Shown: positions 6,863 through 62,608 of the stretch, piece after piece
Layout: each line of letters opens with the position of its first letter
Numbering within the stretch: position 1 is the stretch's first letter
Origin: Ruminococcus sp.
GTDB taxonomy: Bacteria > Bacillota > Clostridia > Oscillospirales > Acutalibacteraceae
Assembly (NCBI GenBank): GCA_045124035.1
Contig: JBGVLC010000032.1
Span: 30,427-94,426, forward strand
DNA: 64,000 nt
Direction of reading: 5' to 3'
Notes under the pieces: model-generated
The model's database searches: none
What the model was told of the DNA's origin: nothing
The model's input: the letters and a program-made list of their open reading frames with translations, nothing else
Translations under genes and position numbers: made by a program

Positions 6863-7402
6863 TCATTTAAAAAACAACGGTAGTTTCTCCAAAAAGATAA
6901 TATCATCCCTATTAGCAGCATCGCCCTCAGCGAGCACAGCTGCTTTACCTACTAAAACGCCCTGTGTTTCTTTGACAAGATTCTCAAGAGCAGTAAGACT
7001 CTCTCCTGTTGAAATAACATCATCAACAATCAATACTCGCTTACCCTTGAGCTTTTCCACATCTTCCTGACCAAGATAAAGTTTCTGGTCATACTGAGTG
7101 GTGATAGTGTTGACATTTACGGATATAGGGTCACTCATATAAACTTTAGTACCTTTTCTGGCAACAACATAGCGGCCACATCCGATTCGAGCCATTTCAT
7201 AACAAAGCGGAATACTCTTAGCTTCAGCTGTGAGAAGAATATCATGTTGAGGGCAGATATCGAGCAACGCCTTGGCACTTTTCTCAGTTATTTCAACATC
7301 GTCGAATAAAATAAATGCGGCAATATCAAGCTTGTCGCTAACAGGATATTTGATGAGCTCACGCTCAACACCCGCTATAGTAATCTTAAAAGTATCAGCC
7401 AT
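6863..7402 (-). CDS. Type I phosphoribosyltransferase (adenine PRT-like)
   Basis: PRPP-binding motif VLIVDDVISTGES; start moved to ATG at 7402 (MADTFKITIAG), which has a GAGGTG SD. Confidence 0.85.
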   Translation of the reverse strand: MADTFKITIAGVERELIKYPVSDKLDIAAFILFDDVEITEKSAKALLDICPQHDILLTAEAKSIPLCYEMARIGCGRYVVARKGTKVYMSDPISVNVNTITTQYDQKLYLGQEDVEKLKGKRVLIVDDVISTGESLTALENLVKETQGVLVGKAAVLAEGDAANRDDIIFLEKLPLFFK

Positions 7403-7412
7403 AACACACCTC

Positions 7413-7748
7413 TTATGCGATTTTCTCGCCAAGCTTTTTGCCACCAAGAAGATGGAAATGCAGGTGCATAACTGTCTGACCACCGTTTTCTTTGCAGTTG
7501 TTGATGATACGGTAACCATCAAGTTCCAATTCTTTCGCAATAACCGGAATCATCTTGAAGATATGAGCAACTACATCACAGTTACTCTCATCAATATCAT
7601 CAGCACAAGCGATATGCTGTTTTGGAACTATAACAACATGAACAGGAGTCTGAGGGTTGATATCGTGGAATGCTAAAATCTTATCATCCTCGTATACTTT
7701 ATTTGATGGAATTTCACCATTTACGATTTTACAAAAAATACAGTCCAT
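7413..7748 (-). CDS. Histidine triad (HIT) nucleotide-binding protein
   Basis: MDCIFCKI, AFHDINPQ, GGQTVMHLHFHLLGG. Confidence 0.95.
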   Translation of the reverse strand: MDCIFCKIVNGEIPSNKVYEDDKILAFHDINPQTPVHVVIVPKQHIACADDIDESNCDVVAHIFKMIPVIAKELELDGYRIINNCKENGGQTVMHLHFHLLGGKKLGEKIA

Positions 7749-7765
7749 TTTTAACCTCCTGAGTT

Positions 7766-9067: not shown

Positions 9068-9185
9068 ACGCAAAACCCCTTTTGTCTATATTACAATATA
9101 CTCTAAGATTATTCAAGTTTTTTAGAAAATAAAAAGAAAAAGCCCCAAGCCCTAGCTCGAGGATTTTTCTTATATGGAAATTAAA

Positions 9186-11819
9186 TTACTTAGCAAGAAT
9201 TTCTTTAACGATACCTTCAACAGCAAAGATAGCATCATCAGTAGCAGAAACGTTCTTACCACCAGCCATAGCCATATCAGGTTTACCGCCGCCATTACCG
9301 CCTGCAATCATAGCTACCTTCTTAACGATATCGCCAGCTTTGAGGCCTTTTGCGATAGCTTTCTTAGAACAAGCACAAACAAATGTGAGCTTTTCACCGT
9401 TAACAGCAGCCAATACGATAACGGCATCATCAACCTTATCTGTTACCTTATCACACATAGTCTTGAGCATATCAGGTGTAGTACCAACAAACATACTTGT
9501 GATAACCTTGGTATCCTCGACCATAGGAGCAGAATCAATAAGTGCGTTAATCTGAGCACCAGCTACCTGGGACTTGAGTGACTCGATCTCCTTTGTCTTC
9601 TCTTTGAGTTCCTGAGCAATACGTTCAGCACCAGCAACGATTTCCTTAGGGTTGTTGATATGGAGAATCTGAGAGGTAAGGACAACAGCATTGACAGCGT
9701 TGTTGAGATAATCAAGAACGCCCTTACCAGTAACAGCCTCAATTCTTCTGACACCTGAAGCAACCGAACCCTCCTGCTTGATTTTGAACAAACCGAGAGC
9801 TGATGTGTTGTTAACATGGGTACCACCGCAGAATTCCATTGAGAATTCGCCCGCTTTGACAACTCGTACAACATCTCCGTACTTCTCGCCGAAGAGAGCC
9901 ATAGCACCGAGCTTCTTAGCTTCTTCGATAGGCATTTCTTTTGACTCAACAGCGATGGCTGAAAGTATCATCTCGTTTACTCTCTCTTCAACCTCAATCA
10001 TTTCCTTAGCTGTCAGAGCTGAGAAGTGAGTGAAGTCAAAACGAACGATTTCGTCAGAAACAAGCTGACCAGCCTGCTGAACGTGAGTGCCGAGCTTCTC
10101 TCTGAGTGCTGCCTGCAAGAGGTGAGCTGCAGTATGGTTACGCTTGATATCTTCACGACGAGCTGAGTCAATAGCACAAGTAACATCGTTTGATACAGAA
10201 ATCATACCTTCTTCCACTTCACAAACATGGAGGAAGATAGAGTTATTATCCTTAGAAACGTTGTCAACTAAAACGCTTGCAGACTGAGTCTTGATAACAC
10301 CTGTGTCAGCAACCTGACCACCGCTTTCTGCATAGAAAGGTGTTTTATCGAGCACAACAACAACGCTGTCGCCTGCGTAAGCTTCAGAAACTCTCTCACC
10401 ATCTTTGATGATAGCAAGAATCTTAGATTCAGACTCATAGTCAGTATAACCAACAAACTGTGTAGCACTTATATCAGAAAGGTCAGTAGCATCAGAAACC
10501 CAAGCATCTGCGCCTGCGTTCTTTCGAGCATTACGGGAACGGTTTTTCTGCTCAACAAGGAGATCCTTGAAGCGCTCGATATCAACCTTGATACCCTTTT
10601 CTTCTAAGATTTCACGGGTGAGGTCAATAGGGAAACCGAATGTATCATTGAGTTTGAATGCATCTTCACCGGAAAGCATCTTCACAGAATTATCATCGAT
10701 GATATTCTGGAGCATCTGCAAACCCTGGTCGATAGTTTTAGCGAAGTTTTCTTCTTCAACCTTGATAAGCTTAGTGATGTATTCCTTTTTGTCAACAAGC
10801 TCAGGATAAGCAGAAGCGTTTTCTTTGATAACAGTCTCACAAATCTTGTAGAGGAATGGCTCTTTGTGGCCAAGCAGACGTCCGTGACGAGCGCCACGAC
10901 GGAGAAGTCTTCTAAGCACATAGCCTCTGCCTTCATTAGATGGCATAACGCCATCAGCAATCATAAATGTAGTTGAACGGATATGGTCGGTGATAACACG
11001 AAGTGAGATATCTGTCTTATCAGACTCGCCATACTTCACACCGACAATATCACTGATGTGTTTCATAATATTCTGAACAGTATCTACAAGGAAAAGGTTG
11101 TCAACGCCCTGCATCACACAAGCAAGACGCTCAAGGCCCATACCAGTATCAATGTTAGGATGTTCAAGAGGAGTGTAGTTGTTGTTACCGTCGTTATCAA
11201 ACTGAGTGAACACGAGGTTCCAAACTTCAACAAAGCGGTCACACTCACAGCCTACAGCACAGTCAGGTGAACCACATCCCTTTTCTTCACCACGGTCAAA
11301 GTAAATCTCAGAGCAAGGACCGCAAGGACCTGAACCATGCTCCCAGAAGTTATCAGCTTTGCCGAGTCTCACCATATGAGATGGGTCAACACCGATTTCC
11401 TTTGTCCAGATATCAAAAGCTTCGTCATCTTCTTCATAAATAGAAACATAGAGCTTTTCCTCTGGCATCTCAAGAACCTTTGTGAAAAACTCCCAAGCCC
11501 AAGCTGTAGCTTCGTGCTTGAAGTAATCACCGAATGAGAAGTTACCGAGCATTTCGAAATATGTACCGTGTCGTGCTGTGATACCAACACGCTCGATATC
11601 TGGGGTACGGATACACTTCTGACAAGTAGTCACACGCTTTCTTGGAGGTGTGATTTCGCCTGTGAAGTACTTCTTCATAGGTGCCATACCTGAGTTAATC
11701 AAAAGTAATGAATTATCATCTTTTGGAATAAGTGGGAAACTTGAGAGACGTAAATGTCCCTTAGATTCCATAAAGCTTAAGAATTTTTCTCTAAGCTCGT
11801 TAAGACCTGTCCACTGCAT
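9186..11819 (-). CDS. alaS: Alanine--tRNA ligase
   Basis: NSGMAPMK, HGTYFEMLGNFSFGDYFK, IDTGMGLER, NHTAAHLL, EFCGGTH, GGGKPDMAMAGG. Confidence 0.98.
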   Translation of the reverse strand: MQWTGLNELREKFLSFMESKGHLRLSSFPLIPKDDNSLLLINSGMAPMKKYFTGEITPPRKRVTTCQKCIRTPDIERVGITARHGTYFEMLGNFSFGDYFKHEATAWAWEFFTKVLEMPEEKLYVSIYEEDDEAFDIWTKEIGVDPSHMVRLGKADNFWEHGSGPCGPCSEIYFDRGEEKGCGSPDCAVGCECDRFVEVWNLVFTQFDNDGNNNYTPLEHPNIDTGMGLERLACVMQGVDNLFLVDTVQNIMKHISDIVGVKYGESDKTDISLRVITDHIRSTTFMIADGVMPSNEGRGYVLRRLLRRGARHGRLLGHKEPFLYKICETVIKENASAYPELVDKKEYITKLIKVEEENFAKTIDQGLQMLQNIIDDNSVKMLSGEDAFKLNDTFGFPIDLTREILEEKGIKVDIERFKDLLVEQKNRSRNARKNAGADAWVSDATDLSDISATQFVGYTDYESESKILAIIKDGERVSEAYAGDSVVVVLDKTPFYAESGGQVADTGVIKTQSASVLVDNVSKDNNSIFLHVCEVEEGMISVSNDVTCAIDSARREDIKRNHTAAHLLQAALREKLGTHVQQAGQLVSDEIVRFDFTHFSALTAKEMIEVEERVNEMILSAIAVESKEMPIEEAKKLGAMALFGEKYGDVVRVVKAGEFSMEFCGGTHVNNTSALGLFKIKQEGSVASGVRRIEAVTGKGVLDYLNNAVNAVVLTSQILHINNPKEIVAGAERIAQELKEKTKEIESLKSQVAGAQINALIDSAPMVEDTKVITSMFVGTTPDMLKTMCDKVTDKVDDAVIVLAAVNGEKLTFVCACSKKAIAKGLKAGDIVKKVAMIAGGNGGGKPDMAMAGGKNVSATDDAIFAVEGIVKEILAK

Positions 11820-11914
11820 AGTAATATCTCCTTTTCGGGAATTATCCCATCATTTGTTATTTTTAGGGTGCTTAAGCACACGGTCGACCAGTGGTCGTTC
11901 CTACAATTTTAAAT

Positions 11915-12125
11915 AAAAAAAGCCTGCCCCAACAATGGGACAGGCTGTGCTGCGGTACCACCCAAATTGACAAAGTTACCTTTGCCCTCTTTGATGTCTT
12001 TAACGCAGACATACGCTGTGCTTTCACACAGAGCTCAGGGGTAGCTTGCTGAAATTTCGCCCAAAGCCTCGCACCAGACGGCTTCTCTCTGTAGAGCTTG
12101 AAGTCAGCTTGTCCCATCAACGCCA
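11915..12125 (-). promoter_or_regulatory. T-box riboswitch (Ala) upstream of alaS
   Basis: Minus strand shows AGAGA and GGTG stem I motifs, a candidate GCT (Ala) specifier, the T-box AATTTGGGTGGTACCGC, and a terminator GCCTGTCCC..GGGGCAGGC-TTTTTT. Confidence 0.9.
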
Positions 12126-12142
12126 ATTTATATATCCTCTAG

Positions 12143-12171
12143 ATTATAAAGGTGTTTTCTTTAGTTGTCAA
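12143..12171 (-). promoter_or_regulatory. SigA promoter for the T-box/alaS leader
   Basis: TTGACA-N17-TATAAT on the minus strand. Confidence 0.8.
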
Positions 12172-12197
12172 TAGATTAAATCTGAATATAACTAATT

Positions 12198-13409
12198 TTA
12201 TAATTTCTTTCTGATTACGGAGCCTGCTGGGATTTCCCTGTCAACTTCCATAAAAAGTTTCTGCATAGCGTGAGGTGCTGATTCGACCTCTTCACCATAC
12301 TCATTTTTCAGGTTTTTTGCGACAACCTCAAACGAAATTCCTGATGGAGGAAGAACATCGAGTGTATCGCCACAGAAGAATTTGTTGCGCTGAGTGATAG
12401 TTGCTACTCCATTATCATAACTTTCGCAAACCGCAACCTGATTATAGTGACGGATATATCCACCATTATCGGTAGTCTGTCCAGGCTCTGTGCCAAAGAA
12501 GAAACCTGTTGAATATTCACGATGCGAGATTTTCTCTAGTTCTTCTTTTATCCAAGGCTGCAAAACAAAATCCTCAGGGTCTTTCATATAGTCATTGAGC
12601 GCGTGACGATAAGCATTTGTCGTAACCGCTGTATAGTACGCTGACTTTGCTCTTCCCTCGATTTTGAAACTGCTGATACCGGCTTTGACAAGTTCGTCAA
12701 TGTGGTCAATCATACACAAATCACGGGAATTATAAAGGAAAGTTCCGCCATTATCTTCGATAACAGGGAAATACTGACCCTCTCTGTTTTGTTCATACAA
12801 ATGATACTTCCAACGACAAGGCTGAGCACAGTCACCCCTATTCGCATCTCTTCCCGTCATAAACGAAGAGATAAGACATCTGCCGGAAAACGACACGCAC
12901 ATAGCTCCGTGAACAAAGCACTCGATTTCGAGCTCTTTCGGAATTTTAGCACGCATTTCAGCGATTTCAGGTAAAGTCATCTCACGAGCAAGAACTACCC
13001 TTGAGGCGCCTAAGTTATACCACGCATTTGCGCTTTCATAGTTAATAATTCCGCCCTGAGTTGAAATATGTCGTTCAACATCTGGTGCGTATTTTTTCGC
13101 CATTTCAAACACGCCAAGGTCAGCAATAATAAATGCGTCAACGCCACACTCTTTCGCTCCCATAAGGAAGTCTGGCATACCCTTGACGTCTTCATTACGA
13201 GGAAGGGTGTTGCATGTTAAATAAAGCTTTTTACCTTTAGCGTGTACTTTATCACAAGCTTGTTTTAGTTCTTCTAAAGAAAAATTCTTAGAAGCGGTAC
13301 GCATACCATAACTTGTGCCTGCTACATATATTGCATCTGCTCCGAAAGAAAGCGCAGATGTTAAACATTCCATATCTCCAGCCGGAGATAAAATTTCAGG
13401 TTTAATCAT
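12198..13409 (-). CDS. Peptidase U32 family protein (probable RNA hydroxylation protein)
   Basis: PEILSPAGD, HISTQ, ECFVHGAMCVSFSGRC, NRGDCAQPCR, FKIEGRAKS. Confidence 0.9.
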   Translation of the reverse strand: MIKPEILSPAGDMECLTSALSFGADAIYVAGTSYGMRTASKNFSLEELKQACDKVHAKGKKLYLTCNTLPRNEDVKGMPDFLMGAKECGVDAFIIADLGVFEMAKKYAPDVERHISTQGGIINYESANAWYNLGASRVVLAREMTLPEIAEMRAKIPKELEIECFVHGAMCVSFSGRCLISSFMTGRDANRGDCAQPCRWKYHLYEQNREGQYFPVIEDNGGTFLYNSRDLCMIDHIDELVKAGISSFKIEGRAKSAYYTAVTTNAYRHALNDYMKDPEDFVLQPWIKEELEKISHREYSTGFFFGTEPGQTTDNGGYIRHYNQVAVCESYDNGVATITQRNKFFCGDTLDVLPPSGISFEVVAKNLKNEYGEEVESAPHAMQKLFMEVDREIPAGSVIRKKL

Positions 13410-13412
13410 AAA

Positions 13413-14825
13413 TTATCCTATCAAAGAAAGATTGTACTCATGTTCTGCCATAGTTGTTGCATAGTAAGGGACTGAGCCGTCTTCTACGCTTGAGTGACAG
13501 AAGAAGTAGTAGTTTGTATCGTACGGACCAAGAGCTGCGAGAATAGCCTCTAAACTTGGGTTACAGATAGGGCCTGCCGGCAAGCCGTTGAAATTGTTTG
13601 TGTTGTAAGAGCTCTTGTAAGTGTCGCGGATTGTTTCAGGAACATCCTTGTACTCACGATAAGGATAGTATACAGTACAGTCACAGTTGAGCTGTGCAAC
13701 ACCCATTTCAACGCCATGATCAAGACGGTTATGCAAAATAGATGAAACATAGTACATATCCTCGGTATTAGCCGCCTCAGCCTGAATGATAGAAGCAATA
13801 GTAATAATCTCGTCCATTGAGTAGTCAGACTTCTCGACATACTTATCAAGTGTATACTTCTTAGAACTGCCAAGGTACTTGTCCTTTGTGTTATAAAGTC
13901 TGTACTCAAAGTTGTTGAGCATTTTTGAAATAGTAGTCTCAGGATCTTCATTGAGATAGAAGTCATAAGTATCAGGGAAAAGATAACCCTCGAGCTTATA
14001 GTATCTCTCGTCAGCATTATCAATGTCAGCAAGGAAAGTATATGACTCATCAAAAACATCGCTGTTACACATATCAAGGAACTCCTGAATATCTTCAGTT
14101 ACGCCCTCTTCATGAAGCTTGTTCGCAATCTCGAGAACATTCATACCCTCTGTCAGCTGAACTGTTACGATATCGGTACGGTTGACATTGCTCTGGAGAT
14201 AGTTGATGATAGCCTCGTAGTCCTTGTCGGTCTCGATTTCATACTCACCCTGTCTGAAACCATCAACAGAACTTGTGATGTTCGCATAAAGTATAAAGAA
14301 ATCAGGACGTTCAATAACACCGTTTTGAGCAAGAACATTCGCTACATCTTCCATTGTAGGATCGTCGGGAATGCTGATGATAACAGTCTTAGGGTCATCC
14401 TCGCGATTGATAGCAAGAAGGTCATTTACGCATACAAGAATAACCTGTGAAAGAACGATACCCATAAGAACAACCATACAGAGCCATACCCATTTGAACA
14501 TTTTCTGGTTGCGTTTAGCCTTATTCTTCTCGATACGCTTGTCCTCTTTGCTCTGCTGTTTGAGAGCTTTTTTCGACTCACGCTCGATACGCTTTTTGGT
14601 ATCCGAATCGCTGTATGAGTTGATTTCGATAGTTTTCTTTCTGCGTTTTAGGTGAGATGAAGCTGATGAAATGCTGAATCTTGAATCAGAGTCCTTTTTA
14701 TACTCTCTGACATCGTTATCATCGTTCATAACACTCTTGTCAAAACTACGCTTGAACTCATCGATTTTCTTTCTTCTTGTATTTTCGATTGAACCATCAG
14801 AATAATTATTCTTAAAATCGCTCAT
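13413..14825 (-). CDS. mltG: Endolytic transglycosylase MltG (YceG)
   Basis: Long charged N-terminus plus TM helix; LEGYLFPDTYDF, IASIIQAE, YNT..GLPAGPICNPS, YYFF. Confidence 0.9.
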   Translation of the reverse strand: MSDFKNNYSDGSIENTRRKKIDEFKRSFDKSVMNDDNDVREYKKDSDSRFSISSASSHLKRRKKTIEINSYSDSDTKKRIERESKKALKQQSKEDKRIEKNKAKRNQKMFKWVWLCMVVLMGIVLSQVILVCVNDLLAINREDDPKTVIISIPDDPTMEDVANVLAQNGVIERPDFFILYANITSSVDGFRQGEYEIETDKDYEAIINYLQSNVNRTDIVTVQLTEGMNVLEIANKLHEEGVTEDIQEFLDMCNSDVFDESYTFLADIDNADERYYKLEGYLFPDTYDFYLNEDPETTISKMLNNFEYRLYNTKDKYLGSSKKYTLDKYVEKSDYSMDEIITIASIIQAEAANTEDMYYVSSILHNRLDHGVEMGVAQLNCDCTVYYPYREYKDVPETIRDTYKSSYNTNNFNGLPAGPICNPSLEAILAALGPYDTNYYFFCHSSVEDGSVPYYATTMAEHEYNLSLIG

Positions 14826-40472: not shown

Positions 40473-40559
40473 GCACCTGTGGCGGAATTGGCAGACGCGT
40501 ATGGTTCAGGTCCATATCTTTTCACGAAGGTGCAGGTTCAAGTCCTGTCAGGTGCACCA
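40473..40559 (+). tRNA. tRNA-Leu(CAG)
   Basis: Acceptor stem GCACCTG/CAGGTGC, anticodon stem TATGG/CCATA with loop TTCAGGT, long variable arm, GGTTCAAGTCC T arm, encoded CCA. Confidence 0.95.
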
Positions 40560-40663: not shown

Positions 40664-41054
40664 TTATGCTGACTTTCTTGGGATATACTCAACCTCAACA
40701 CCTATGCGTGTGTCGGCTTTGTAATTTTCATCTTCGGGCAACATTGGAATGTTAATAAACCCGACAAAGCGGTAGTATATAACAAGTTCTTGAGTATAGC
40801 ATTTGTTTCCGCCTTGCTTTTCGTGAACATCAATATGGTCAATGAGTTCTCGAAGCATTGGTGCTGTAAGAATTCTCATTTCCATAAACTTTCGGACAGC
40901 TTTGATGAAATCATCTTTGTCTTGCTTCATTTCACCGATTTTGGAAAGACGTTCTCTGTACTCAGCAATGTTGCTTTTTAGTTCAAGTCGCTCTGTTTCA
41001 TATTTACGGAGCAACTCCATAAACATCTCGTCGCTGACTTTGCCTGTTACATTA
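40664..41054 (-). pseudogene. C-terminal remnant of a large serine recombinase (DUF4368-type tail)
   Basis: NVTGKVSDEMFMELLRKYETE..LRELIDHIDVHE..QELVIYYRFVGFI; an in-frame stop lies just upstream, and the catalytic and recombinase domains are absent. Confidence 0.75.
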
Positions 41055-41604: not shown

Positions 41605-44250
41605 TCATTCAATCAGACCGTATTTTATTTTTATTCGGTCAAGTTTTTCAAGCATCGGTTCTGATACAAGCAAAAGAAATAAAGCCGTTGAAAAACCGTG
41701 AATCAAATCCATCGGCAAACCTGTCACATAGTAAGCAAACAACATCTCAAAATTTACTGACTGCGGTGAAATCATCAAAGCCGCCGCAGGGTTCATTATA
41801 CCACCGTATATTACAACCGCACACAAAACGCCAAACACAGCAAGTGACATTCTTGTTCTTCTGAGCCATCCTTTTTTGAACAGTACACCTGCCAAAAACC
41901 CAATTATACCCATCGCAAACATCTGCCAAGGTGTCCATGGACCTTGTGAAAACAACATATTTGATGTAAGCATTGTAACAGCACCTACTAAAAATCCTGT
42001 TTCTCCACCCAAGGCTACACCTGCAATTATTGTCAAAGCCATAACTGGTTTGAACTGCGGCAGCATAAAAAACAGGCTTCGTCCTGCAACTGCTATGCCA
42101 CACAGCACAGCTATTGTAACAAGCTCTCTTGCTTTTGGTTTTCTGCCCTCAAAGACGAGCACAAATGGTAACATACACTCGAGTAGCACAAGCAGGGCAA
42201 TTATGTTGTAATAGTCATCATCAAGATAGAACACACCGCAAAAAATTGTAAGTGGTATGAAAAGTAAAATCAGAACTGAAGCAGTAATAGTTCGTCTGTT
42301 TAGTTTTCGATGTTGTTTATCAGTTTGCACCATAATCGGTGCTGGACTTCTTCGACCTATCGAGAGTATAAACACCGACAAAGCCACAAACAAGACTATA
42401 TATAATTTCAGCTGACCAAAACCTTGTTCACTTATACCTGATGAATTCACCATTGAAGATAATTCTGTTATCCCTGTTGCATATAAAAATACAGCAAAAG
42501 CAACAAGCATTGAAACACAAGCTATCAGCTTTCGCCACAATGGAAGTGGCTTTGGTTTGAAGCTTACACTTCTTTTTGAGACTTGCGGTAGTGGTGTTAT
42601 CGTTTCATCTTCTTCTGCTTCTTCTTTGATTTCTGCACCACAGCAATATGTAATATCTTCAACTGTTACAGCCTTTGGTATAAGGTGGCGAGCCATACGA
42701 TTTGCAGGAGTAGTGTAAAAGCTGTTGCCCGAGAAAAACTCTCTTGGTGTGCCTTCTGCAACAATATTGCCGTCAAAAAACATTCCGCAACGGTGAGCAT
42801 ATTCAGCACAAAAGCTTACATCGTGGCTGACCATAAGAATTGTCACACCTTGCTTTAACAGCTTTTTCAGAATATTTGCAAAGCTGACTTTAAATTCCGC
42901 ATCAAAACCTTTTGTCGGTTCATCTAAAAGCAACACATCAGGAGAAGTAAGCAACACTTTTGCAAGGGCTGTACGCTGTTGTTCACCGCCTGAGATGTCA
43001 TAAGGATGACGGTCAAGAAAAGCTGAAAGCTCACATAATTTTACTACACGGGCAACCTGCTCGTCCTTTTCTTCCTTTGTCATTTTAGCACCTTTGAACA
43101 CTTCATATAAATCTTCTCGAACAGTGCGTTTCACAAAAAGTGTCTGGGGATTCTGAGGAAGATGTGCAAGCTTTCCTTTTATTTTCACATCTCCTCTGTA
43201 TGATGGCAGTATTCCTGAAATTACTTTTAATGCAGTTGTTTTTCCTGCACCATTACCACCTAGTAATGCATAGAAATCGCTTTTTCTGAGTTCAAGTGAA
43301 AAACCTTTGACCACATCAGGTGAGTCTTTCTCGTATCGAAACCAGATGTTATCAACTCTCAAAGCTACATCTTCACTTTGAATTAAATCGTCTTTTTTAT
43401 AAAGCTCCCTGAGGGGCTTTTCTTTATTTCTGCTGTTTAAAAAATCACTGCCATCACGCACAGTAAGAGGACAACTTAAATCTGTCTCAACTCCTGCCCA
43501 TACACGCATAGCAGTTGGCATAGCAAGAAACATTGAGTTTTCTTTTTCTTTGAGAGTCAGTCCGACTTTCTGAGGAACATCATCACAGATTATTTCGCCT
43601 TTTTCCATAACAACAACCCTAGTTGCATAGACAAAAGCTTCTTCGAGGCGGTGCTCTGTGAGTATAACAGTTGTGCCGAGTTCTCGGTTGATTCTGCCGA
43701 GAAGTGCCAAAAAGTCGGTTGCCGCAATCGGGTCAAGCTGTGCTGTAGGTTCATCAAGCACCAGCACGCTTGGTTGCATAGCCATAACAGAAGCTAAACT
43801 TAACAGCTGTTTCTGTCCGCCTGACAGTTCGCTGACGTTTTTATAAAACCATTTTTCAATTCCGAAAAAAGCCGCTACTTCTGCAACTCGTCTGCGGATT
43901 GTCGGCGTATCATAGCCTAAACTTTCAAGACCGAACGCAAGCTCATGCCACACCTTATCGGTTACAACCTGATTTTCGGGTGACTGCATAACAAAGCCGA
44001 TTTTCTGAGATTGAGTGCGTGCGTCAACGTCATCAAGTTTATACCCATCAAAAAGAATGTCACCTGTTAAAGTTCCGTGTGGTTTAAGGCAGGTTTTCAA
44101 ATGCCTTAAAAGAGTTGATTTACCACAACCTGACGGACCACAAAGCACTAAAAATTCACCTTGTGTTACCTCAAAAGAAATGCTTTTGAGTGCTCTTTGC
44201 TCCTGCTCAGGATACGAAAAGCTCACATTTTTGAATATATAGTTTTCCAT
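41605..44250 (-). CDS. ECF transporter: tandem ATPase (A-A') fused to a C-terminal S component (CbrT-like, cobalamin)
   Basis: Two Walker A motifs (GPSGCGKST, GGNGAGKTT), LSGGQ and ISGGE signatures; C-terminal multi-TM region with PQFKPVMAL..GFLVGA..SNMLFSQGPWTPWQMFAMG. Confidence 0.88.
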   Translation of the reverse strand: MENYIFKNVSFSYPEQEQRALKSISFEVTQGEFLVLCGPSGCGKSTLLRHLKTCLKPHGTLTGDILFDGYKLDDVDARTQSQKIGFVMQSPENQVVTDKVWHELAFGLESLGYDTPTIRRRVAEVAAFFGIEKWFYKNVSELSGGQKQLLSLASVMAMQPSVLVLDEPTAQLDPIAATDFLALLGRINRELGTTVILTEHRLEEAFVYATRVVVMEKGEIICDDVPQKVGLTLKEKENSMFLAMPTAMRVWAGVETDLSCPLTVRDGSDFLNSRNKEKPLRELYKKDDLIQSEDVALRVDNIWFRYEKDSPDVVKGFSLELRKSDFYALLGGNGAGKTTALKVISGILPSYRGDVKIKGKLAHLPQNPQTLFVKRTVREDLYEVFKGAKMTKEEKDEQVARVVKLCELSAFLDRHPYDISGGEQQRTALAKVLLTSPDVLLLDEPTKGFDAEFKVSFANILKKLLKQGVTILMVSHDVSFCAEYAHRCGMFFDGNIVAEGTPREFFSGNSFYTTPANRMARHLIPKAVTVEDITYCCGAEIKEEAEEDETITPLPQVSKRSVSFKPKPLPLWRKLIACVSMLVAFAVFLYATGITELSSMVNSSGISEQGFGQLKLYIVLFVALSVFILSIGRRSPAPIMVQTDKQHRKLNRRTITASVLILLFIPLTIFCGVFYLDDDYYNIIALLVLLECMLPFVLVFEGRKPKARELVTIAVLCGIAVAGRSLFFMLPQFKPVMALTIIAGVALGGETGFLVGAVTMLTSNMLFSQGPWTPWQMFAMGIIGFLAGVLFKKGWLRRTRMSLAVFGVLCAVVIYGGIMNPAAALMISPQSVNFEMLFAYYVTGLPMDLIHGFSTALFLLLVSEPMLEKLDRIKIKYGLIE

Positions 44251-45113
44251 TTTCTATCCTCCACAGTGTTGAGCACAACAGGTGTTATGCATAGTCCAAA
44301 GTAAATAAAATAAAAAGGTATGGTTGTAATATTGAAAGCTGAGTATCGTATATCCGGAAAATATCTGAAACCAAAGGCAGATACTATAACTCCAGCCAGA
44401 AGATACAGAAAACAGAACACAAACCATACAAGTACGTATTTATCCCTATCCTCAAAACGATAAATAGAAAACGCTGTTCTGCCCTTTAAGCCGTAACCTC
44501 GGCTTTTCATACTGTCAGCAGTTTCGATTGCATTCTCAAGCGACCACGTTATCATAATCGACATAATTGTTATTGCAGTTTTTGTGCGACTGATAAGACT
44601 TCCGCTTGATATATCTCTGCCGATACATCTTTGTGCATCTGCTACATTTTTCATCTGAGTTTTGAATTTCGGTACAAAACGTAAGGTCATACTGAGCACT
44701 AACGATAATGCGGGTATAACCTTGCCGAAAAGATAAATAAACTTATCAGATGTCATAACGCAGTTGAAAGCCGAAAACCACAACAGCAAAGTTATAATCA
44801 TACCGCCTGACGAAAAACCATAGAGTATGCTTTCAAGTGTCAGCGGATTACCGTTTGAAAAATACAGCAAAATAGTTTTGCCCTCGTGATTAAAAGCAGG
44901 GTTAATGAACGCCGTGAGTAAGACAAGTGGTAAGCAGAATTTCAGCAAAAAGCCTACACTTTTCTTTCCCTGTGTGCTGATAACATAAACGACAGCACAC
45001 AAGAGTGAAATAAGCTGTGCAAACGGATGGTTGATTACCATTGAAAATCCGATTGTAAGCGTAAAATATATTAAATTAACAAAAGGATGATACTTAGAAA
45101 AAGAATCACGCAT
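44223..45113 (-). CDS. ECF transporter T component (CbiQ/EcfT)
   Basis: YHPFVNLIYF, MTLRFVPKF, LENAIETADSMKSRGYG. Confidence 0.9.
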   Translation of the reverse strand: MRDSFSKYHPFVNLIYFTLTIGFSMVINHPFAQLISLLCAVVYVISTQGKKSVGFLLKFCLPLVLLTAFINPAFNHEGKTILLYFSNGNPLTLESILYGFSSGGMIITLLLWFSAFNCVMTSDKFIYLFGKVIPALSLVLSMTLRFVPKFKTQMKNVADAQRCIGRDISSGSLISRTKTAITIMSIMITWSLENAIETADSMKSRGYGLKGRTAFSIYRFEDRDKYVLVWFVFCFLYLLAGVIVSAFGFRYFPDIRYSAFNITTIPFYFIYFGLCITPVVLNTVEDRKWKTIYSKM

Positions 45114-45116
45114 ATT

Positions 45117-46244
45117 TTATCCCATCCAATCGCAACCTACATCTTTACCTAAATCACAGGTGTATCGCCATTCAACAACTTCACCTTGCACAAGCTGATA
45201 ACGAGAGCAACCATAGTTTGGATACCAACCATTAACCCTGTAAGTCCAACCTGATAGATTACCACAATCAAACTCATACAGGTTATGGATACCCTCTATG
45301 TACGCACTGTTATAAATCGGAGTCCATGATGATTCAAGGTGTATATTATTTTCTTTACACACACGCTGAAGAACATCAAACACAGACTCGCCCTCAAAGA
45401 AAGTAACTGTTGTCGCAGGTAAAATCACACCATTTGATGGTACAAGTTCTAATTTATCAGGGTCCAGGTCTTCAAGATTATTGAGTATAGTTGAACACTC
45501 AATAGAAAATGTGCAGGTATATGTTTTTTCGTTATTTATATCTTGATTTTCAGGTTCTACAGGTCTTGGTTTACCCTGTGGTATAGGGTCTGTTTTATAC
45601 TTATCCTGTTCTGAGTCACTTCCGTCGGAATATACTCTGCCACCTGACTGCAAAGAACCACTCAGGTATTCATCAGTCTTTACATCATCTGAATCGTTCT
45701 TTGTTTTATCTTTGTCAGACGAAACCACTTTGTTCTCTGTTGCTTGTTGCTGTGTAGTGTCAGGAGTTATGATACAACTTTCAACGATTTTATTAACAGA
45801 AATATTCAGGATACTCTCTTTTGTTCCTGTGAGCGACACCGAATAAACGGGCTTATCATCCGAATATGCTGTTGCACTAAGGCAGTCCCACTTCTCGTTC
45901 AGATAAACAGAAAGTAACATCGGAAATCCGAAATCCTCTTTCTGTGAAAACTCGATTATTATTCCATCTTTATTCTTAATATCAGTTAAAAGATTTATAT
46001 CTTTCGTTTCAACAATATCGCTACCAAAAACTGTCCATTCATAAGAATAGTCACCCGACTTACCCGTAAAAGTAGCGATTGCATTTTCGTCTTTAATGTG
46101 ATTTAAAACACTTTTTTCAATTATTCCGTCTTCGGGAATCGCTATGTCAGATTGTAAATCAACCTGAGAAAAGTTACCCTCACACGCACATAGTAAAAAT
46201 AACAACACTATACTTATCAGTATGCTTAAAAACTTTTTCATCAC
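45117..46244 (-). CDS. Lipoprotein with a C-terminal DUF4430 domain (putative cobalamin-binding)
   Basis: Lipobox LCAC; GESVFDVLQRVC, YIEGIHNLYEFDCG..SGWTYRVNGWYPNYGCSRY, WRYTCDLGKD. Confidence 0.82.
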   Translation of the reverse strand: MMKKFLSILISIVLLFLLCACEGNFSQVDLQSDIAIPEDGIIEKSVLNHIKDENAIATFTGKSGDYSYEWTVFGSDIVETKDINLLTDIKNKDGIIIEFSQKEDFGFPMLLSVYLNEKWDCLSATAYSDDKPVYSVSLTGTKESILNISVNKIVESCIITPDTTQQQATENKVVSSDKDKTKNDSDDVKTDEYLSGSLQSGGRVYSDGSDSEQDKYKTDPIPQGKPRPVEPENQDINNEKTYTCTFSIECSTILNNLEDLDPDKLELVPSNGVILPATTVTFFEGESVFDVLQRVCKENNIHLESSWTPIYNSAYIEGIHNLYEFDCGNLSGWTYRVNGWYPNYGCSRYQLVQGEVVEWRYTCDLGKDVGCDWMG

Positions 46245-46892
46245 TTATTCACCAACAACAATTTTTCCGTTTTTGACTTTCAATGTTTTCTGTATCATCG
46301 CAAGGCTCTCTTTTTCGTCTGATGCTGCAAAAACAGCATCCTCAACTATGAGGTCAAAGACTTCGTCTGTTCTTGCACCACCTTTTATACGGAAATTCAT
46401 TCTATAAACAACATTGTCTTTTTCTTCGAGTAACTCCTGACTGAATGAATTTTTGCCACCTGTTGTATCGAGATACATAATATTGATAAGTCCCGATTTA
46501 TTGCATTGTTCTACATTACAGCTAAACTCAGGGAGCTTGACATCTTCACCTGATGTTGCATTGTTATAAACATAAACATTTCCTTCTTCAAGTCCCAAAA
46601 ACTCAAGTTTTGAATTGTCAAAAGAAATGCTCGAACTGAAAGCAGGATATTTTGCTTCTCCAAGACTTGTAACAGTAACATCAAGAGATACTGTATCATC
46701 TTGTGACAAACTTATCTTCTGCGGTGTTTCAACAATCAGGGTAGGTTTTGACCTGAAAATATCATCCTTTTTAAAAACAAGAAATATAATCAGTAATATA
46801 ACAAGAATAATTGCAATTAAGATGATAATAATTCTTTTCTTTTTTTTAGAGTTCTTAACTTCTTTATTAAGAGTTTCAACCTTTTCTTCCAT
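46245..46892 (-). CDS. Membrane-anchored cohesin-like protein
   Basis: KKKKR followed by a strongly hydrophobic helix, then a beta-rich domain with the cohesin pattern V.LDVTV..AFSSSISFDNSKLEFLGLEEG..GLINIMYLD..VYRMNFRIK. Confidence 0.7.
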   Translation of the reverse strand: MEEKVETLNKEVKNSKKKKRIIIILIAIILVILLIIFLVFKKDDIFRSKPTLIVETPQKISLSQDDTVSLDVTVTSLGEAKYPAFSSSISFDNSKLEFLGLEEGNVYVYNNATSGEDVKLPEFSCNVEQCNKSGLINIMYLDTTGGKNSFSQELLEEKDNVVYRMNFRIKGGARTDEVFDLIVEDAVFAASDEKESLAMIQKTLKVKNGKIVVGE

Positions 46893-46956: not shown

Positions 46957-49749
46957 TTAGTTTGCTAAAGCTGCCGCTTTTGTAACTACCTGATAATCTG
47001 TGCCATTTACAAATGATTCTACGATACCAAGTGCATCGAATGTATTTACACGGCTGTCTGAGTTTACGTTGAGTGCTAAAATCTCGTTGTCATGTGGAGC
47101 ATCGCTCTTTCTGAGCCACGCATCAACGGCTGAAAGTGCATCCTGTGCGTTTACAATGCCATCAAAATTCGCATCACCAAACTGCAACGCCTCAGCTTTT
47201 GTATCTTCAATTTCAAAGTTTGACTTGTCTGCAAAATTCTGCATATCAATTGATGCAGGTACAATAGCCACATAAGACGAAACACCTGTTTTACTGCTTA
47301 TCTCAGGACTGTATTTGAAGTCAACAGCATTTGTGCCATCGTTATATGTAACCTTTGTCTGTTCATCAACTGATGTAACAGAAAGAGCCACAGCTTTTTT
47401 GCTTGATGGGATAAGGTCAACGTCATCACCCTGATAGAGGCAAATTGCGTTGAACGATACACCCTGTACAACATTCACGCTACCGCTTGCTTTGTCTGTT
47501 TTTACAACAATAATTGAGTCAGGATTAGTTGAGTCAGAGTTAAGCTTTACTGACATACCTGTTAAAGAGATATCGAGAACATCACCGGCTTTTGCTGTAT
47601 CAACCCTGAACTTAACTGTGAACAGATCAGCAGGGAAAGATGTACCTGTACCTGTAACTGTAATATCGTTGTTATTATTTGCATCAAAGTAAACTACTCT
47701 GAGCTTTCTTGTAGAATTTTCAACATACCAGTTGATTTCACCGCCATTTAAGCAGTTATTTGCAACAACATCTTCTACTGCAACACCACTTGGAATGTTC
47801 ATAACATAGTCGATAAGTTTATAAGCTCCATTGTTGTCCCACTGATTGATGCTGATTACACCATTGAATGTTGCACCTTTTGTGTCTTCGATTTCAGCAG
47901 GCACAGAAAGTGTAGCTGTCAAATCACCTTTTACAGGTGTTACAACTTCTTCAAATGTAACATCAGACATATTGTAAAGTGATGTTTTACCTGTAACTAA
48001 ACGCTTGTAAGCAATAAGAGCATAGCAAGCCTGATCGGTTGCCATTGCGTTTGAATCACCAGACTGAGCGTGCTTGAACATAGCATCATCTTCTACGTAA
48101 TAAGAAAGAAGATTATCAACAGCAGAATTGCCGTCTTTAATAAATCTTATGTCAGTATCAGGATTAATGCCCCAAGTTGTACAAGCAACGATAATCTGAG
48201 CCGCACTTTCAGATGTTTCGCCTGTGCCATATAAGAATCCACCGGTTGAAAGCTGTTCTCTCGATAAACGGTCAAATGCTTTTTGTGCCGCATTTGTTAC
48301 ATCAGCTTTGTCACGATATGGGTACAAAGCCTGTAATGCCATACCTGTAATATCGGTATTCATAGATGAACCTGACATAGCCCAACCACCATCAGCAAGC
48401 TGTTTTTCAAGAAGATAATCAACGCACTGCTGACGGATTGTTTCATCCTCTGTCATATAATTGTTTGTATCTAATGCGATAAGTGTATAGATAACACCGT
48501 TGATACCCTGTTTCTTAACCCAGGAAAAGTCACTGTAATTAGCTGTTAAGTCCCAGTTACCAACAGAAGTTGCATCTTTACCAATAGATGATAAAGCAAG
48601 GATAACACGTGAATTATCTGTTGATTTTGATTTATGTAATGCACCATTTAAGTTAATTGATTCAGCCTTGCTGTTAACATACTCAACAATGCGGTCATAG
48701 TAAGCTTCAAAATACTCATCACCTGTGTTGAAGTACTCGCCACGAGCAAGACAAAGAACTGTCCATTCACCTGCATTTGTACCAAAGGCAGGCTCTGTTA
48801 CTGTATCAGCAAGCTGAGCTAAAGTTGCATTTAATACAGCACTGACATCCTGTGGCTGACGAACAGGTGTATCTTTACCTTTTACAGTAATGCTTGCAAA
48901 AGCAGGAGCAGATACGATTGCACTTGGATATTCTGCACCGTAACCACCATTACACCAGAGATACCAAGTGCCTGATTTAAGTGCAGGGATAGTAGCTACA
49001 CCACTGCTGTCAGTTGTTACTGTGCCCATAGCTTCGCCTAATGTTTTGCCGTAAGAGACCGAGCAGTCAGCTACCTCACTAAGTGCTAATTCGCCACCAA
49101 AACCGCCACCGCTTCTGACTAAACTAATAGGAAGCTCTTTGTCAGCGTCTACTTCATATGAGTGAGTAATCTCACCATTTGCATCTGCAAAATAGTTAAA
49201 ACCTGCCGCTGAGTCCATCCAGAACTCCCAGCTTGTATAGCCTGCGATGTCGTAAAAATCACCTGATTTAAGGCTTAAATTATCCGCTGTTGCACCCCAA
49301 CCCGGAGAAAGCTCAGGATATATACCATTGAGGTAGTAATTTAAGTTGCAGTCAGGAAAACCAAAAAGTCCTTCCTGAAAGAAGATACTGCTTGGACTAC
49401 CCGAAACAACAACATCGCTCCAATCAAGACCAAAAAGCTCTTCGTGAGTGTAAATATATAAGTGAAGTGCTGTTACATCATATTTACCGTCACCATCACC
49501 ATCATAATAGAAGTCTGATAATCCGTATTCATCTAAACTGATATTTTCAAGTGCAGACATTGGCACTTCTGCGTAAGCAATAGGTTTATCGTTTTTGTCG
49601 TTGACAAACTCCCCGTCAAAGCTTATTGAAATATAAATGCTGTCTTTTTCTGTTGCAAACACTGTGAAAGGCAAAGCAGTGACTATCATTAAAACAGTAA
49701 GCAACAAACAAAGTAGTTTTTGTGTTATGTTTTTACTTTTTGTTTTCAT
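46957..49749 (-). CDS. Secreted surface protein: DUF4430-like domain + Ig-like + prenyltransferase/squalene-cyclase-type alpha/alpha barrel + cohesin-like + dockerin
   Basis: Signal peptide; NYYLNGIYP..WGATADNLSLKSGD; EWTVLCLAR, QGINGVIYTLIALD, QLADGGW..DITGMALQAL, ATDQACYAL; two Ca-binding loops GDANFDGIVNAQDA and NVNSDSRVNTFDA. Confidence 0.75.
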   Translation of the reverse strand: MKTKSKNITQKLLCLLLTVLMIVTALPFTVFATEKDSIYISISFDGEFVNDKNDKPIAYAEVPMSALENISLDEYGLSDFYYDGDGDGKYDVTALHLYIYTHEELFGLDWSDVVVSGSPSSIFFQEGLFGFPDCNLNYYLNGIYPELSPGWGATADNLSLKSGDFYDIAGYTSWEFWMDSAAGFNYFADANGEITHSYEVDADKELPISLVRSGGGFGGELALSEVADCSVSYGKTLGEAMGTVTTDSSGVATIPALKSGTWYLWCNGGYGAEYPSAIVSAPAFASITVKGKDTPVRQPQDVSAVLNATLAQLADTVTEPAFGTNAGEWTVLCLARGEYFNTGDEYFEAYYDRIVEYVNSKAESINLNGALHKSKSTDNSRVILALSSIGKDATSVGNWDLTANYSDFSWVKKQGINGVIYTLIALDTNNYMTEDETIRQQCVDYLLEKQLADGGWAMSGSSMNTDITGMALQALYPYRDKADVTNAAQKAFDRLSREQLSTGGFLYGTGETSESAAQIIVACTTWGINPDTDIRFIKDGNSAVDNLLSYYVEDDAMFKHAQSGDSNAMATDQACYALIAYKRLVTGKTSLYNMSDVTFEEVVTPVKGDLTATLSVPAEIEDTKGATFNGVISINQWDNNGAYKLIDYVMNIPSGVAVEDVVANNCLNGGEINWYVENSTRKLRVVYFDANNNNDITVTGTGTSFPADLFTVKFRVDTAKAGDVLDISLTGMSVKLNSDSTNPDSIIVVKTDKASGSVNVVQGVSFNAICLYQGDDVDLIPSSKKAVALSVTSVDEQTKVTYNDGTNAVDFKYSPEISSKTGVSSYVAIVPASIDMQNFADKSNFEIEDTKAEALQFGDANFDGIVNAQDALSAVDAWLRKSDAPHDNEILALNVNSDSRVNTFDALGIVESFVNGTDYQVVTKAAALAN

Positions 49750-49769: not shown

Positions 49770-49997
49770 TTACACAAGTTTCTTTTTTGTTTTTCTTTTC
49801 TTCGTTTTCTTAGGAACTAAGGATTTAGGCTCTTTAAGACCAGCCGTTTCCAAAGCTCTTGGCCACGGACCGAGAAAGGCTTTTATTCGTGAACGTGTTA
49901 CTTCATCGAAATCATCCTTGTGCGGAAGTCTACCAAGTTCCCTATTTTTCTCTATTAAAAGTTCTACCGCCCAGGACTTTTTCTCTTCAGTTGTCAC
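49770..49997 (-). CDS. 75-aa basic protein resembling a stand-alone homing-endonuclease-associated repeat
   Basis: GTG start with AGAGGAGG SD; ELGRLPHKDDF..IKAFLGPWPRALETAGL; Lys-rich tail. Confidence 0.6.
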   Translation of the reverse strand: MTTEEKKSWAVELLIEKNRELGRLPHKDDFDEVTRSRIKAFLGPWPRALETAGLKEPKSLVPKKTKKRKTKKKLV

Positions 49998-50146: not shown

Positions 50147-50185
50147 AGATTTAAAGCACGCCAAAACAGCTTTGAATTACACATA

Positions 50186-50240
50186 TAAAAAAGAGTGCCA
50201 ACCCAAAGCCGCCAAAAGCGGTAAATCGGTTGCACTCTTC
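50186..50240 (-). terminator. Riboswitch expression-platform terminator
   Basis: AAGAGTGCAACC...GGTTGGCACTCTT-TTTT with an internal CCGC/GCGG hairpin. Confidence 0.7.
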
Positions 50241-50269
50241 TCACCAAAGTTGTGTTTAACCTAAAAAAG

Positions 50270-50471: not shown

Positions 50472-50500
50472 ATTATACCATAGATAGAATCAATTTTCAA
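50472..50500 (-). promoter_or_regulatory. SigA promoter of the B12 operon
   Basis: TTGAAA-N17-TATAAT with an extended TG. Confidence 0.7.
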
Positions 50501-60862: not shown

Positions 60863-61015
60863 CAAAAAAGGAAGCTACCGATTTGGTAACTTCCTTAATA
60901 TACTTCGTTATTCCTAATATCCTTGTATCAGGCATCCCTACGTTGGCATTATCCAAATCAGGTTCTCGGTCGAAGGTCACACCTTCCTCTCAGCCTGTAA
61001 CACAAGCTCCCGTTT
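60863..61015 (-). promoter_or_regulatory. TPP riboswitch with terminator (upstream of thiS)
   Basis: CGGGAGC..GGCTGAGAGG..GACC..AACCTGATTTGGATAATGCCAACGTAGGG; terminator AGGAAGTTACC/GGTAGCTTCCT-T6. Confidence 0.95.
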
Positions 61016-61046
61016 ATTTAATTGTCAAAAAAACTATACTCTAATA

Positions 61047-62243: not shown

Positions 62244-62392
62244 ATAAAAAGGAAACTACCTATTTGGTAATTTCCTTAAAAATCAGTTTCCATGATACGT
62301 TGTATCATGCATCCCTACGTTGGCATTATCCAAATCAGGTCCTAGGTCGAAGGTCACACCTTCCTCTCAGCCTGTAACACAAGCTCCCGTTT
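62244..62392 (-). promoter_or_regulatory. TPP riboswitch with terminator (upstream of the S component)
   Basis: Aptamer nearly identical to the 60933-61015 copy; terminator AGGAAATTACC/GGTAGTTTCCT-T5; promoter TTGAAA-N17-TATAAT at 62409-62437. Confidence 0.95.
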
Positions 62393-62608
62393 CTTAAATT
62401 TTGGTTACATTATACACCGCAAAACTGCATATTTCAAGAGGTTTTTAAAGTTATAGAGTTACTTTATCAAAGTACTCACTTGTATGTGTCTGTTTAGGCG
62501 CACCATCGTCGTCACGGACTCAAAAGATCGTACAACTATTTTTATGATGAAATGGTCGCATAACCTTAATATAACTCCTCTGACCTTTGTTACATTTTTT
62601 ACTAGCTA

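Follow-up and report, generated by a model that had tools for sequence, protein, structure and literature searches.

A predicted surface-tethered corrinoid capture protein in a cobalamin riboswitch-controlled operon of a Ruminococcus sp.

Introduction

Bacteroides captures vitamin B12 outside the cell with the characterised proteins BtuG and BtuH. To our knowledge, only a membrane transporter, ECF-CbrT, has been characterised in Firmicutes. The competition of Gram-positive gut bacteria for scarce cobamides is poorly understood. Here we analyse a gene from a Ruminococcus sp. (assembly GCA_045124035.1, contig JBGVLC010000032.1). It lies in a stretch of 64 kb, the window, whose numbering is used for all positions. 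The gene (46957..49749, minus strand) encodes a secreted multidomain protein of 930 amino acids (aa). It is the second gene of an operon in which six genes are closely spaced on the minus strand, downstream of a cobalamin riboswitch. The protein is composed of a signal peptide, a beta-grasp domain (D1), a beta-sandwich (D2), an alpha/alpha toroid (D3), a cohesin-fold module (D4), a beta module (D5), and a type I dockerin. A first-pass annotation, made from the sequence, had proposed an analogue of transcobalamin and intrinsic factor. The open reading frame (ORF) that it named is real; its strand had been left unstated.

Burroughs, Balaji, Iyer and Aravind (2007, Biol Direct 2:4, PMC1796856) described bacterial secreted proteins in which SLBB domains and alpha/alpha toroids are fused in either order. 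The operons hold a second SLBB protein and CbiO/CbiQ genes, and the hosts lack B12 synthesis. A role in B12 scavenging was predicted, together with a possible bacterial origin of animal transcobalamin. The class of protein studied here is, then, already predicted in that work. Our locus likewise has a secreted toroid with beta-grasp domains of SLBB type, a second SLBB (DUF4430) protein, CbiO/CbiQ-type transporter genes, a host apparently without B12 biosynthesis (no CbiD or CobS), a predicted scavenging function, and variable surface anchors among its relatives. However, the fused D1 is not a recognisable DUF4430, and the canonical DUF4430 is on a separate lipoprotein. The anchor is a dockerin with an operon-encoded membrane cohesin, and neither term occurs in PMC1796856. 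There is also an extra cohesin-fold module, and the S-component is fused to the ATPases. We found no biochemical test of the 2007 prediction of transcobalamin-like surface binders of Firmicutes in the searchable literature.

The mammalian B12 carriers transcobalamin, intrinsic factor and haptocorrin (2BB5, 2PMV, 4KKI) are also extracellular and combine an alpha/alpha barrel with a small beta-grasp. Their beta domains are among the structural neighbours of D1, and some relatives of our protein share the order of toroid and then DUF4430. In contrast, the 930-aa protein has no PF01122 match and no such beta domain past the toroid. It carries four extra modules, and its binding of B12 is a prediction. 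It would be tethered to the cell and coupled to an energy-coupling factor (ECF) transporter, whereas the mammalian carriers enter cells by receptor-mediated endocytosis.

The lsa1836-1840 operon of Lactobacillus sakei (Verplaetse et al., bioRxiv 10.1101/864751) has the same set of ECF components (S, A-A' and T) and two secreted proteins. By HHpred, Lsa1839 resembles the beta and Lsa1840 the alpha domain of transcobalamin, and an extracellular scavenger formed in trans was proposed. The idea of a trans pair is therefore already in that work. The toroid forms a protein of its own there, a feature shared with the split operons of same-genus relatives described below. However, that operon is assigned to heme uptake and, as described, has no dockerin, cohesin, D1-D2 or cobalamin riboswitch.

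ECF-CbrT of Lactobacillus delbrueckii (6FNP; Santos et al. 2018, PMC5997447) transports cobalamin and cobinamide, not hemin, and hemin does not compete. The S-domain of our operon aligns to CbrT, and EcfT and EcfA-A' are present in both. ECF-CbrT needs no binding protein outside the cell and draws on an ECF module that it shares, whereas our operon has a dedicated module, joins the S-component to the ATPases in one chain, and also encodes three surface proteins. As in type I cohesin-dockerin pairs (4DH2, 3UL4, 2XDH), a C-terminal dockerin with two Ca2+-loop repeats occurs with a membrane-anchored cohesin in a dockerin-rich host. Unlike in these pairs, the cargo is presumably a vitamin binder instead of a carbohydrate-active enzyme, and the pair is co-encoded in a riboswitch-controlled transporter operon. 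A literature search for dockerin and cobalamin returned nothing relevant. The dockerin with an operon-encoded membrane cohesin as anchor, the internal cohesin-fold module, and D1-D2 as a family without Pfam model are not described in the searchable literature.

We propose, with moderate confidence, that the 930-aa protein captures corrinoids (B12) at the cell surface, to which it is tethered, for an uptake system controlled by the riboswitch, and that its toroid pairs in trans with the DUF4430 lipoprotein. The B12-binding role is strongly supported by the context. In the proposed mechanism, low B12 would cause the riboswitch to let transcription pass the terminator. The signal peptide would direct export of the protein, and the C-terminal dockerin would attach it to the membrane cohesin whose gene comes next. 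The toroid would bind rather than catalyse. It would hold the corrinoid against a small beta-grasp (SLBB) domain, as the alpha domain of transcobalamin does. This partner would most likely be the canonical DUF4430 of the adjacent lipoprotein, acting in trans. The S-domain of the dedicated ECF transporter, which resembles CbrT, would then receive the ligand, and ATP would be spent on its import. D1-D2 may serve as a second lid or a pre-capture site, or may have another use.

Results

The operon encodes a CbrT-like importer under riboswitch control

The cobalamin riboswitch aptamer (RF00174; 50257..50457, minus strand) scores 86.7 bits against a gathering threshold of 31.5 and covers the full length of the model (1-189). 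It is the sole cobalamin riboswitch in the whole genome, and the operon is the only uptake locus so marked. Downstream of it is an intrinsic terminator, a stem-loop followed by a U-run (50182..50242, minus strand), with a minimum free energy of -28 kcal/mol and z of -3.86 against shuffled sequences. It is likely the expression platform of the riboswitch.

The transporter is encoded by the last two genes. EcfT, of the CbiQ family (44223..45113, minus strand), matches PF02361 with E 4.7e-10. The other gene (41605..44250, minus strand) encodes an 881-aa fusion of the EcfA and EcfA' ATPases with a CbrT-like S-component (TIGR04520, 340 bits against a cut-off of 315). Residues 707-860 of the fusion match PF07155 and PF12822. 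With the C-terminal 226 aa as query, the single match in the PDB is 6FNP chain A, which belongs to ECF-CbrT (E 3e-6), and the alignment spans residues 10-177 of the 182-residue CbrT. All components of the ECF-CbrT type (a CbrT-like S-component, EcfT and EcfA-A') are thus present. A cobalt-ion transporter, another reading of CbiQ/CbiO genes, was ruled out because the S-domain is CbrT-like, not CbiM/N. By eye, about four extra hydrophobic helices appear to lie between the ATPases and the S-domain (residues ~570-700). No family model covers them.

Upstream of EcfT, a 375-aa lipoprotein (45117..46244, minus strand) has a C-terminal DUF4430 domain at residues 285-362 (PF14478, E 4.5e-15). Its lipobox, LCAC, was read off the sequence. 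DUF4430 is an SLBB domain like that of transcobalamin beta. It shows an identity of 66-89% in the 120 best-listed of 2589 relatives. Between this gene and the 930-aa gene lies the gene for a 215-aa cohesin protein with an N-terminal transmembrane helix (46245..46892, minus strand; PF00963, E 4.2e-7). By its adjacency, this cohesin is the presumed receptor of the dockerin.

Gene order is conserved and the genome looks like that of a B12 auxotroph

At least 1535 homologues of the 930-aa protein were found, and 433 species genomes encode relatives of it. The 80 best-matching loci are all from metagenome-assembled genomes (MAGs) of gut Clostridia (Faecousia, Acutalibacteraceae, Ruminococcus, Oscillospiraceae and Lachnospiraceae). 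We compared the gene order of 83 related loci. Wherever the contig extends, the order is kept: small protein, 930-aa protein, cohesin, DUF4430 lipoprotein, EcfT, and ATPase-S fusion. The membrane cohesin is directly downstream of the 930-aa gene in 72 loci, and its absences coincide with contig ends. The gene for the small protein, which has an HNH_repeat, is kept in 70. All 67 loci that reach far enough have the DUF4430 lipoprotein gene. Likewise, a cobalamin riboswitch is found 5' of eight of the nine orthologous operons tested.

The genome has 2.1 Mb and is 99% complete. CbiD and CobS were not found in it, and it encodes two proteins with a B12-binding domain. These absences, the single cobalamin riboswitch and the two B12-binding-domain proteins make the genome look like that of a B12 auxotroph. 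The organism appears to depend on imported, complete cobamides; complete ones would be required because B12 could not be finished from cobinamide without CobS.

The three same-genus relatives examined have a split operon (in one of them, positions 7035-13627 of its locus). It encodes a 320-aa DUF4430-like/cadherin-like/dockerin protein and a 377-aa toroid protein that likewise carries a dockerin. A DUF4430 lipoprotein, EcfT and the ATPase-S fusion complete the operon. A cobalamin riboswitch is ahead of it in all three, with weaker scores (36-49 bits), and no cohesin gene was found within it. Here the toroid is a separate protein beside two DUF4430 proteins, which speaks for pairing in trans. 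D1 is absent from all of the 40 nearest genomes. The fused 930-aa form shows 98% and 84% identity to two MAGs and 50-60% to the other 78 listed loci, several of which are assigned to other families. Because of this identity pattern across families and the lack of D1 in the nearest genomes, the comparison suggests that the fused operon arrived by horizontal transfer and took the place of the split form.

Domain anatomy of the 930-aa protein

The full-length AlphaFold2 model, made from 59 homologues, has a mean predicted local distance difference test (pLDDT) score of 83.9 and a predicted template modelling score (pTM) of 0.44. The signal peptide (residues 1-33, ...TVFA|TEKD; 49651..49749, minus strand) was read off the sequence. 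Its N-terminus is basic, residues 6-25 form a hydrophobic helix, and a VFA motif stands at the predicted cleavage site.

D1 (residues 35-195; 49165..49647, minus strand) has the conserved motif NLNYYLNGxYP...GWGATxD...GDF and a DGDGDG loop. This loop (residues 83-88; 49485-49502, minus strand) lies within an insertion of D1. D83 and D87 are invariant in it, and D85 and G88 nearly so. It looks like a Ca2+ site of the DxDxDG type. D2 is a prealbumin-like beta-sandwich (residues 196-295; 48865..49164, minus strand), all beta in the model, with weak Pfam matches to SpaA, CarboxypepD_reg, bMG3 and DUF4198. After the toroid, D4 (residues 601-760; 47470..47949, minus strand) was identified as a cohesin fold by Foldseek, with matches to 2XDH (E 5.7e-8, template modelling (TM) score 0.70) and 2VO8. 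Its profile similarity to the cohesin of the operon is weak (P 0.008). D5 is a beta-sandwich spacer (residues 761-850; 47200..47469, minus strand), all beta in the model secondary structure.

The dockerin (residues 858-915; 47005..47178, minus strand) has two repeats, DANFDGIVNAQD and NVNSDSRVNTFD. They correspond to the two 22-residue repeats with DxNxDGxxxxxD Ca2+ loops of type I dockerins. PF00404 gives 19.9 bits in the protein scan, below the cut-off, and 25.6 bits in a six-frame search of the genome, above it. Its profile also matches dockerin structures in the PDB at E 0.004. Among the regions compared, the dockerin core is the most conserved, with 36% invariant columns, and the toroid is second (28%). 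They are followed by D1 (19%) and by D2, D4 and D5 (8-11%).

The genome holds 59 matches to the dockerin family, of which 58 are above the cut-off, and about eight cohesin modules. Some of these modules belong to a 1079-aa protein on another contig, with two cohesins and a dockerin. The 215-aa cohesin of the operon is the best-scoring cohesin in the genome. Given its many dockerins and cohesin modules, the organism is of the cellulosome or amylosome type.

The toroid lacks cyclase and thioester motifs

The first-pass annotation had noted a helical stretch with QxxDGGW-type repeats at ~47980-48850, and had suggested in it a barrel for binding instead of a terpene cyclase, with no evident DxDD motif. 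The helical repeats and the missing DxDD were confirmed. The stretch corresponds to residues 300-590 and forms 12 helices in the AlphaFold2 model. As delimited by the model secondary structure and profiles, D3 covers residues 296-600 (47950..48864, minus strand). It has two QxxxGG[WF] repeats, EKQLADGGW at 454 and REQLSTGGF at 503. A motif scan of the 930-aa protein found no DxDD, DDxxD or CxEQ.

Fifty family members were compared with Pfam. PF00432 is matched by 49 of them, PF13243 by 33, and TED, weakly, by six. PF01122, the alpha domain of transcobalamin, is matched by none at E<=1. The Pfam scores of the 930-aa protein, 17-21 bits for PF13243 (gathering threshold 26.1) and 16-19 bits for PF00432 (26.5), are below threshold. 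The family profile of the toroid matches squalene-hopene-type cyclase structures with E 8e-6, and profile searches of the PDB gave squalene-cyclase-type structures only, and no transcobalamin. According to model and profiles, D3 is an alpha/alpha toroid of the prenyltransferase/squalene-cyclase superfamily. We presume that it serves as a corrinoid-binding barrel. A Pfam scan of the 930-aa protein found PF14478 nowhere; what follows the toroid is the cohesin-fold module, the beta module and the dockerin.

D1 is DUF4430-like by fold, marginally, and not by sequence

The same annotation had likened an N-terminal motif of the protein to the DUF4430 of the neighbouring lipoprotein. The lipoprotein domain is confirmed by its Pfam match, and both strings are present. 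NYYLNGIYP...WGATADNLSLKSGD occupies residues 137-164 of the 930-aa protein (nucleotides 49258-49341), and WTYRVNGWYPNYGC..L..GE occupies residues 333-354 of the 375-aa lipoprotein. The likeness itself is not above chance by sequence. BLASTP gave E 3.8 over eight residues, with only YxxNGxYP aligned. The Pfam DUF4430 model did not match residues 30-200 even at E<=10, and D1 has no Pfam hit of any kind. We used hhalign with DUF4430 alignments built from the neighbouring genes and from 120 further homologues. The noted motif was aligned in register, with D1 NYYxNGxYP...GD against DUF4430 W.Y.VNG.YP...GD, but with P 0.008-0.017 and a probability below 5%. Against the DUF4430-dockerin protein of a same-genus relative, hhalign gave nothing. 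A word-seeded profile search with D1 returned only fragments of its own family. Likewise, an exhaustive HMMER profile search found no bridge from D1 to PF14478 besides their co-occurrence within one chain.

The fold gives another picture. A separate model of D1 (residues 35-195; pLDDT 87.8, pTM 0.86) has the order b1, b2, helix, hairpin, b3, b4, b5 of a beta-grasp. A beta-hairpin inserted after the main helix defines the transcobalamin-like SLBB clade (Burroughs et al. 2007, PMC1796856). In Foldseek, the best PDB match of D1 is the DUF4430 protein 3U7Z (E 0.013, probability 0.96). It is followed by rat transcobalamin, haptocorrin, and the isolated beta domain of human transcobalamin, in this order (E 0.013-0.4 overall). 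Nothing was found at E<0.001, and the generic beta-grasps Urm1 and SAMP1 are close behind. Judging from these models, D1 is probably, but marginally, DUF4430-like by fold. The check that the annotation had suggested, AlphaFold with Foldseek, places D1, at marginal E-values, nearest to DUF4430 and transcobalamin beta domains, and returns mostly complement C3/C4 and cohesins for the whole protein.

D1-D2 is a general surface-protein cassette

We searched 1.84 billion representatives exhaustively with the D1 profile. At least 519 clusters at 50% identity carry D1. It is almost always followed by D2, and this pairing holds in most homologues. Among the 150 D1 proteins listed, 138 were new and were annotated with hidden Markov models (HMMs) built from the 930-aa protein family. 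In 77 of the 138, D1-D2 is found with nothing else modelled. Arrays of two to five D1-D2 copies occur, in proteins of up to 3000 residues. The companions of D1-D2 are SLH, CWB2, dockerin, Big_2, He_PIG and Flg_new, mostly without B12 context.

The toroid is also present in 27 of the 138 relatives. Nine of these have the order D1-D2-toroid-DUF4430, and barrel followed by beta domain is the order of transcobalamin. Four of them were scanned with Pfam. All four have PF14478 above the cut-off after the toroid, and SLH anchors instead of a dockerin. Since relatives show this order, the natural partner of the toroid is likelier to be a canonical DUF4430, which here is on the neighbouring lipoprotein.

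No ECF genes were found beside toroid-less D1 proteins in 80 metagenome loci, and one of eight toroid-less D1 loci tested has a cobalamin riboswitch. As D1-D2 is mostly toroid-less, without ECF neighbours and seldom near this riboswitch, it is a general surface-protein cassette recruited to B12 systems. One metagenome contig (4451-13977) has a cobalamin riboswitch (36.5 bits) directly 5' of a gene for a 1789-aa protein with D1, Flg_new and SLH. The next gene encodes 1241 aa and is matched by the family-built DUF4430 HMM, not by Pfam. This locus may represent a second, toroid-less B12-regulated use of D1.

Other features of the operon and the window

A candidate sigma-70-like promoter was placed just 5' of the riboswitch by a consensus scan (50472..50500, minus strand). 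It reads TTGAAA, 17 nucleotides, and a TG-extended TATAAT, with 11 of 12 matches. The first gene past the riboswitch (49770..49997, minus strand) encodes a strongly basic product of only ~75 aa, which contains an HNH_repeat (PF18780, E 1.2e-8) and lacks a signal peptide. It starts with GTG, and GGAGGG is found 6 nucleotides ahead. One homologue (1011 aa) has PF18780 and the dockerin within one chain.

The window also contains a T-box leader (11933-12129, minus strand) and two thiamine pyrophosphate (TPP) riboswitches (60918-61023 and 62295-62400, both minus strand). The latter are near thiamine-biosynthesis genes, with ThiH-, ThiG- and ThiE-like ORFs at 56-60 kb. A tRNA (40473-40556, plus strand) adjoins a 120-aa ORF (40664-41026, minus strand).

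Discussion

The proposal of a transcobalamin analogue survives in part. The riboswitch, the CbrT-like S-domain and the lack of CbiD and CobS point to a B12 role by context, and none of the 50 family members matches PF01122, which weighs against the likeness. Other points also weigh against a capture function as proposed here. The sequence matches of the toroid are prenyltransferase and squalene-cyclase families, and complement C3/C4 and cohesins dominate the Foldseek list of the whole protein. With a pTM of 0.44, the packing of the domains is uncertain. Gene order and fusions are the basis for pairing the toroid with DUF4430 and the dockerin with the cohesin. With about 58 dockerins and about eight cohesin modules in the genome, another cohesin might receive the dockerin. 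No binding data for any bacterial member exist in the searchable literature, and the homologous operon of L. sakei was tied experimentally to heme, not B12 (10.1101/864751).

How the two halves would pair was left as an either-or by the first-pass annotation: reversed order in one chain, or in trans with the lipoprotein. Pairing in trans is better supported, because relatives place DUF4430 past the toroid and the lipoprotein gene follows in every locus that is long enough. In the cis arrangement, D1, as a divergent SLBB/DUF4430 domain, would clamp B12 by closing onto the toroid within its own chain, and the lipoprotein would only relay the vitamin to the transporter. This arrangement takes its strength from the fold of D1, whose best matches are 3U7Z and the beta domains of transcobalamin and haptocorrin, and whose hairpin after the main helix is the hallmark of that SLBB clade. 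It agrees with the register of the two motifs in hhalign and with the fusion of D1 to toroids in 27 of the 138 relatives. Same-genus split operons also start, at the equivalent position, with a recognisable DUF4430-sandwich-dockerin protein, and a toroid can stand C-terminal to an SLBB domain (Burroughs et al. 2007, PMC1796856). Nevertheless, the fold match is marginal, with generic beta-grasps similar, and neither Pfam, hhalign nor profile searches tie D1 to DUF4430. The distribution of D1 also argues against it: 77 relatives have D1-D2 only, arrays reach five copies, and toroid-less loci are without ECF genes (0 of 80) and mostly without the riboswitch (1 of 8). Moreover, relatives that combine D1-D2 with a toroid have a canonical DUF4430 further along the chain, past the toroid, which would make D1 redundant as the beta half. 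We regard the cis arrangement as possible, though on balance doubtful.

Alternatively, the system might capture heme or some different tetrapyrrole, or no more than a corrinoid precursor. For heme, the precedent is the L. sakei ECF operon with its transcobalamin-alpha- and beta-like secreted proteins, and ECF transporters of heme are known (PMC7299338). However, a cobalamin riboswitch controls the operon here and eight of the nine orthologous loci tested, and the S-domain resembles CbrT, for which hemin is no competitor. A precursor does not fit the absence of CobS, without which cobinamide could not be completed. We consider such ligands very unlikely. The least probable of all the readings is that the protein binds no vitamin. 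It would then be a secreted terpenoid or prenyl enzyme, a trap like alpha-2-macroglobulin/C3, or a structural or adhesive cellulosome component that is merely in the operon. The family matches of the toroid, the C3/C4 structures at the top of the Foldseek list, the weak matches of TED (6 of 50 members) and of bMG3 to D2, and the dockerin-rich genome are all compatible with it. The enzyme and the thioester trap were rejected because DxDD, DDxxD and CxEQ are absent, and the Pfam scores are below gathering thresholds. At a TM score of 0.17 and a root-mean-square deviation above 30 A, the C3/C4 alignments show no more than domain types in common. Besides, the order with DUF4430 and CbrT-type ECF genes is kept in every long-enough locus, and the riboswitch stands 5' of eight of the nine loci tested. 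A surface-tethered corrinoid catcher that pairs in trans with the DUF4430 lipoprotein accordingly remains our preferred reading.

A further proposal, which we rate as unlikely, goes beyond this reading. D1-D2 might bind corrinoids itself, as a branch of the transcobalamin-like SLBB superfamily that has no Pfam model and has so far gone unrecognised, and the operon would then encode a three-module capture complex. If true, Gram-positive gut bacteria would deploy multivalent B12 "sponges". The operon would be a self-contained, riboswitch-controlled complex assembled by cohesin and dockerin. The vitamin would pass inward from its binding modules (D1, the toroid, and the lipoprotein with DUF4430) to the ECF importer. 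By way of the internal cohesin-fold module, several catcher molecules might even be linked into chains.

The operon family occurs among animal-gut Clostridia, with at least 433 species genomes, and offers a compact system to study how Gram-positive gut bacteria compete for cobamides. It raises the questions of whether a bacterial pair of toroid and DUF4430 binds B12 in the manner of transcobalamin, how the ligand would be handed over to the ECF S-component, and whether a cellulosome connector has been reused as the anchor of a vitamin catcher. The family is also relevant to the proposed origin of animal transcobalamin in such bacteria.

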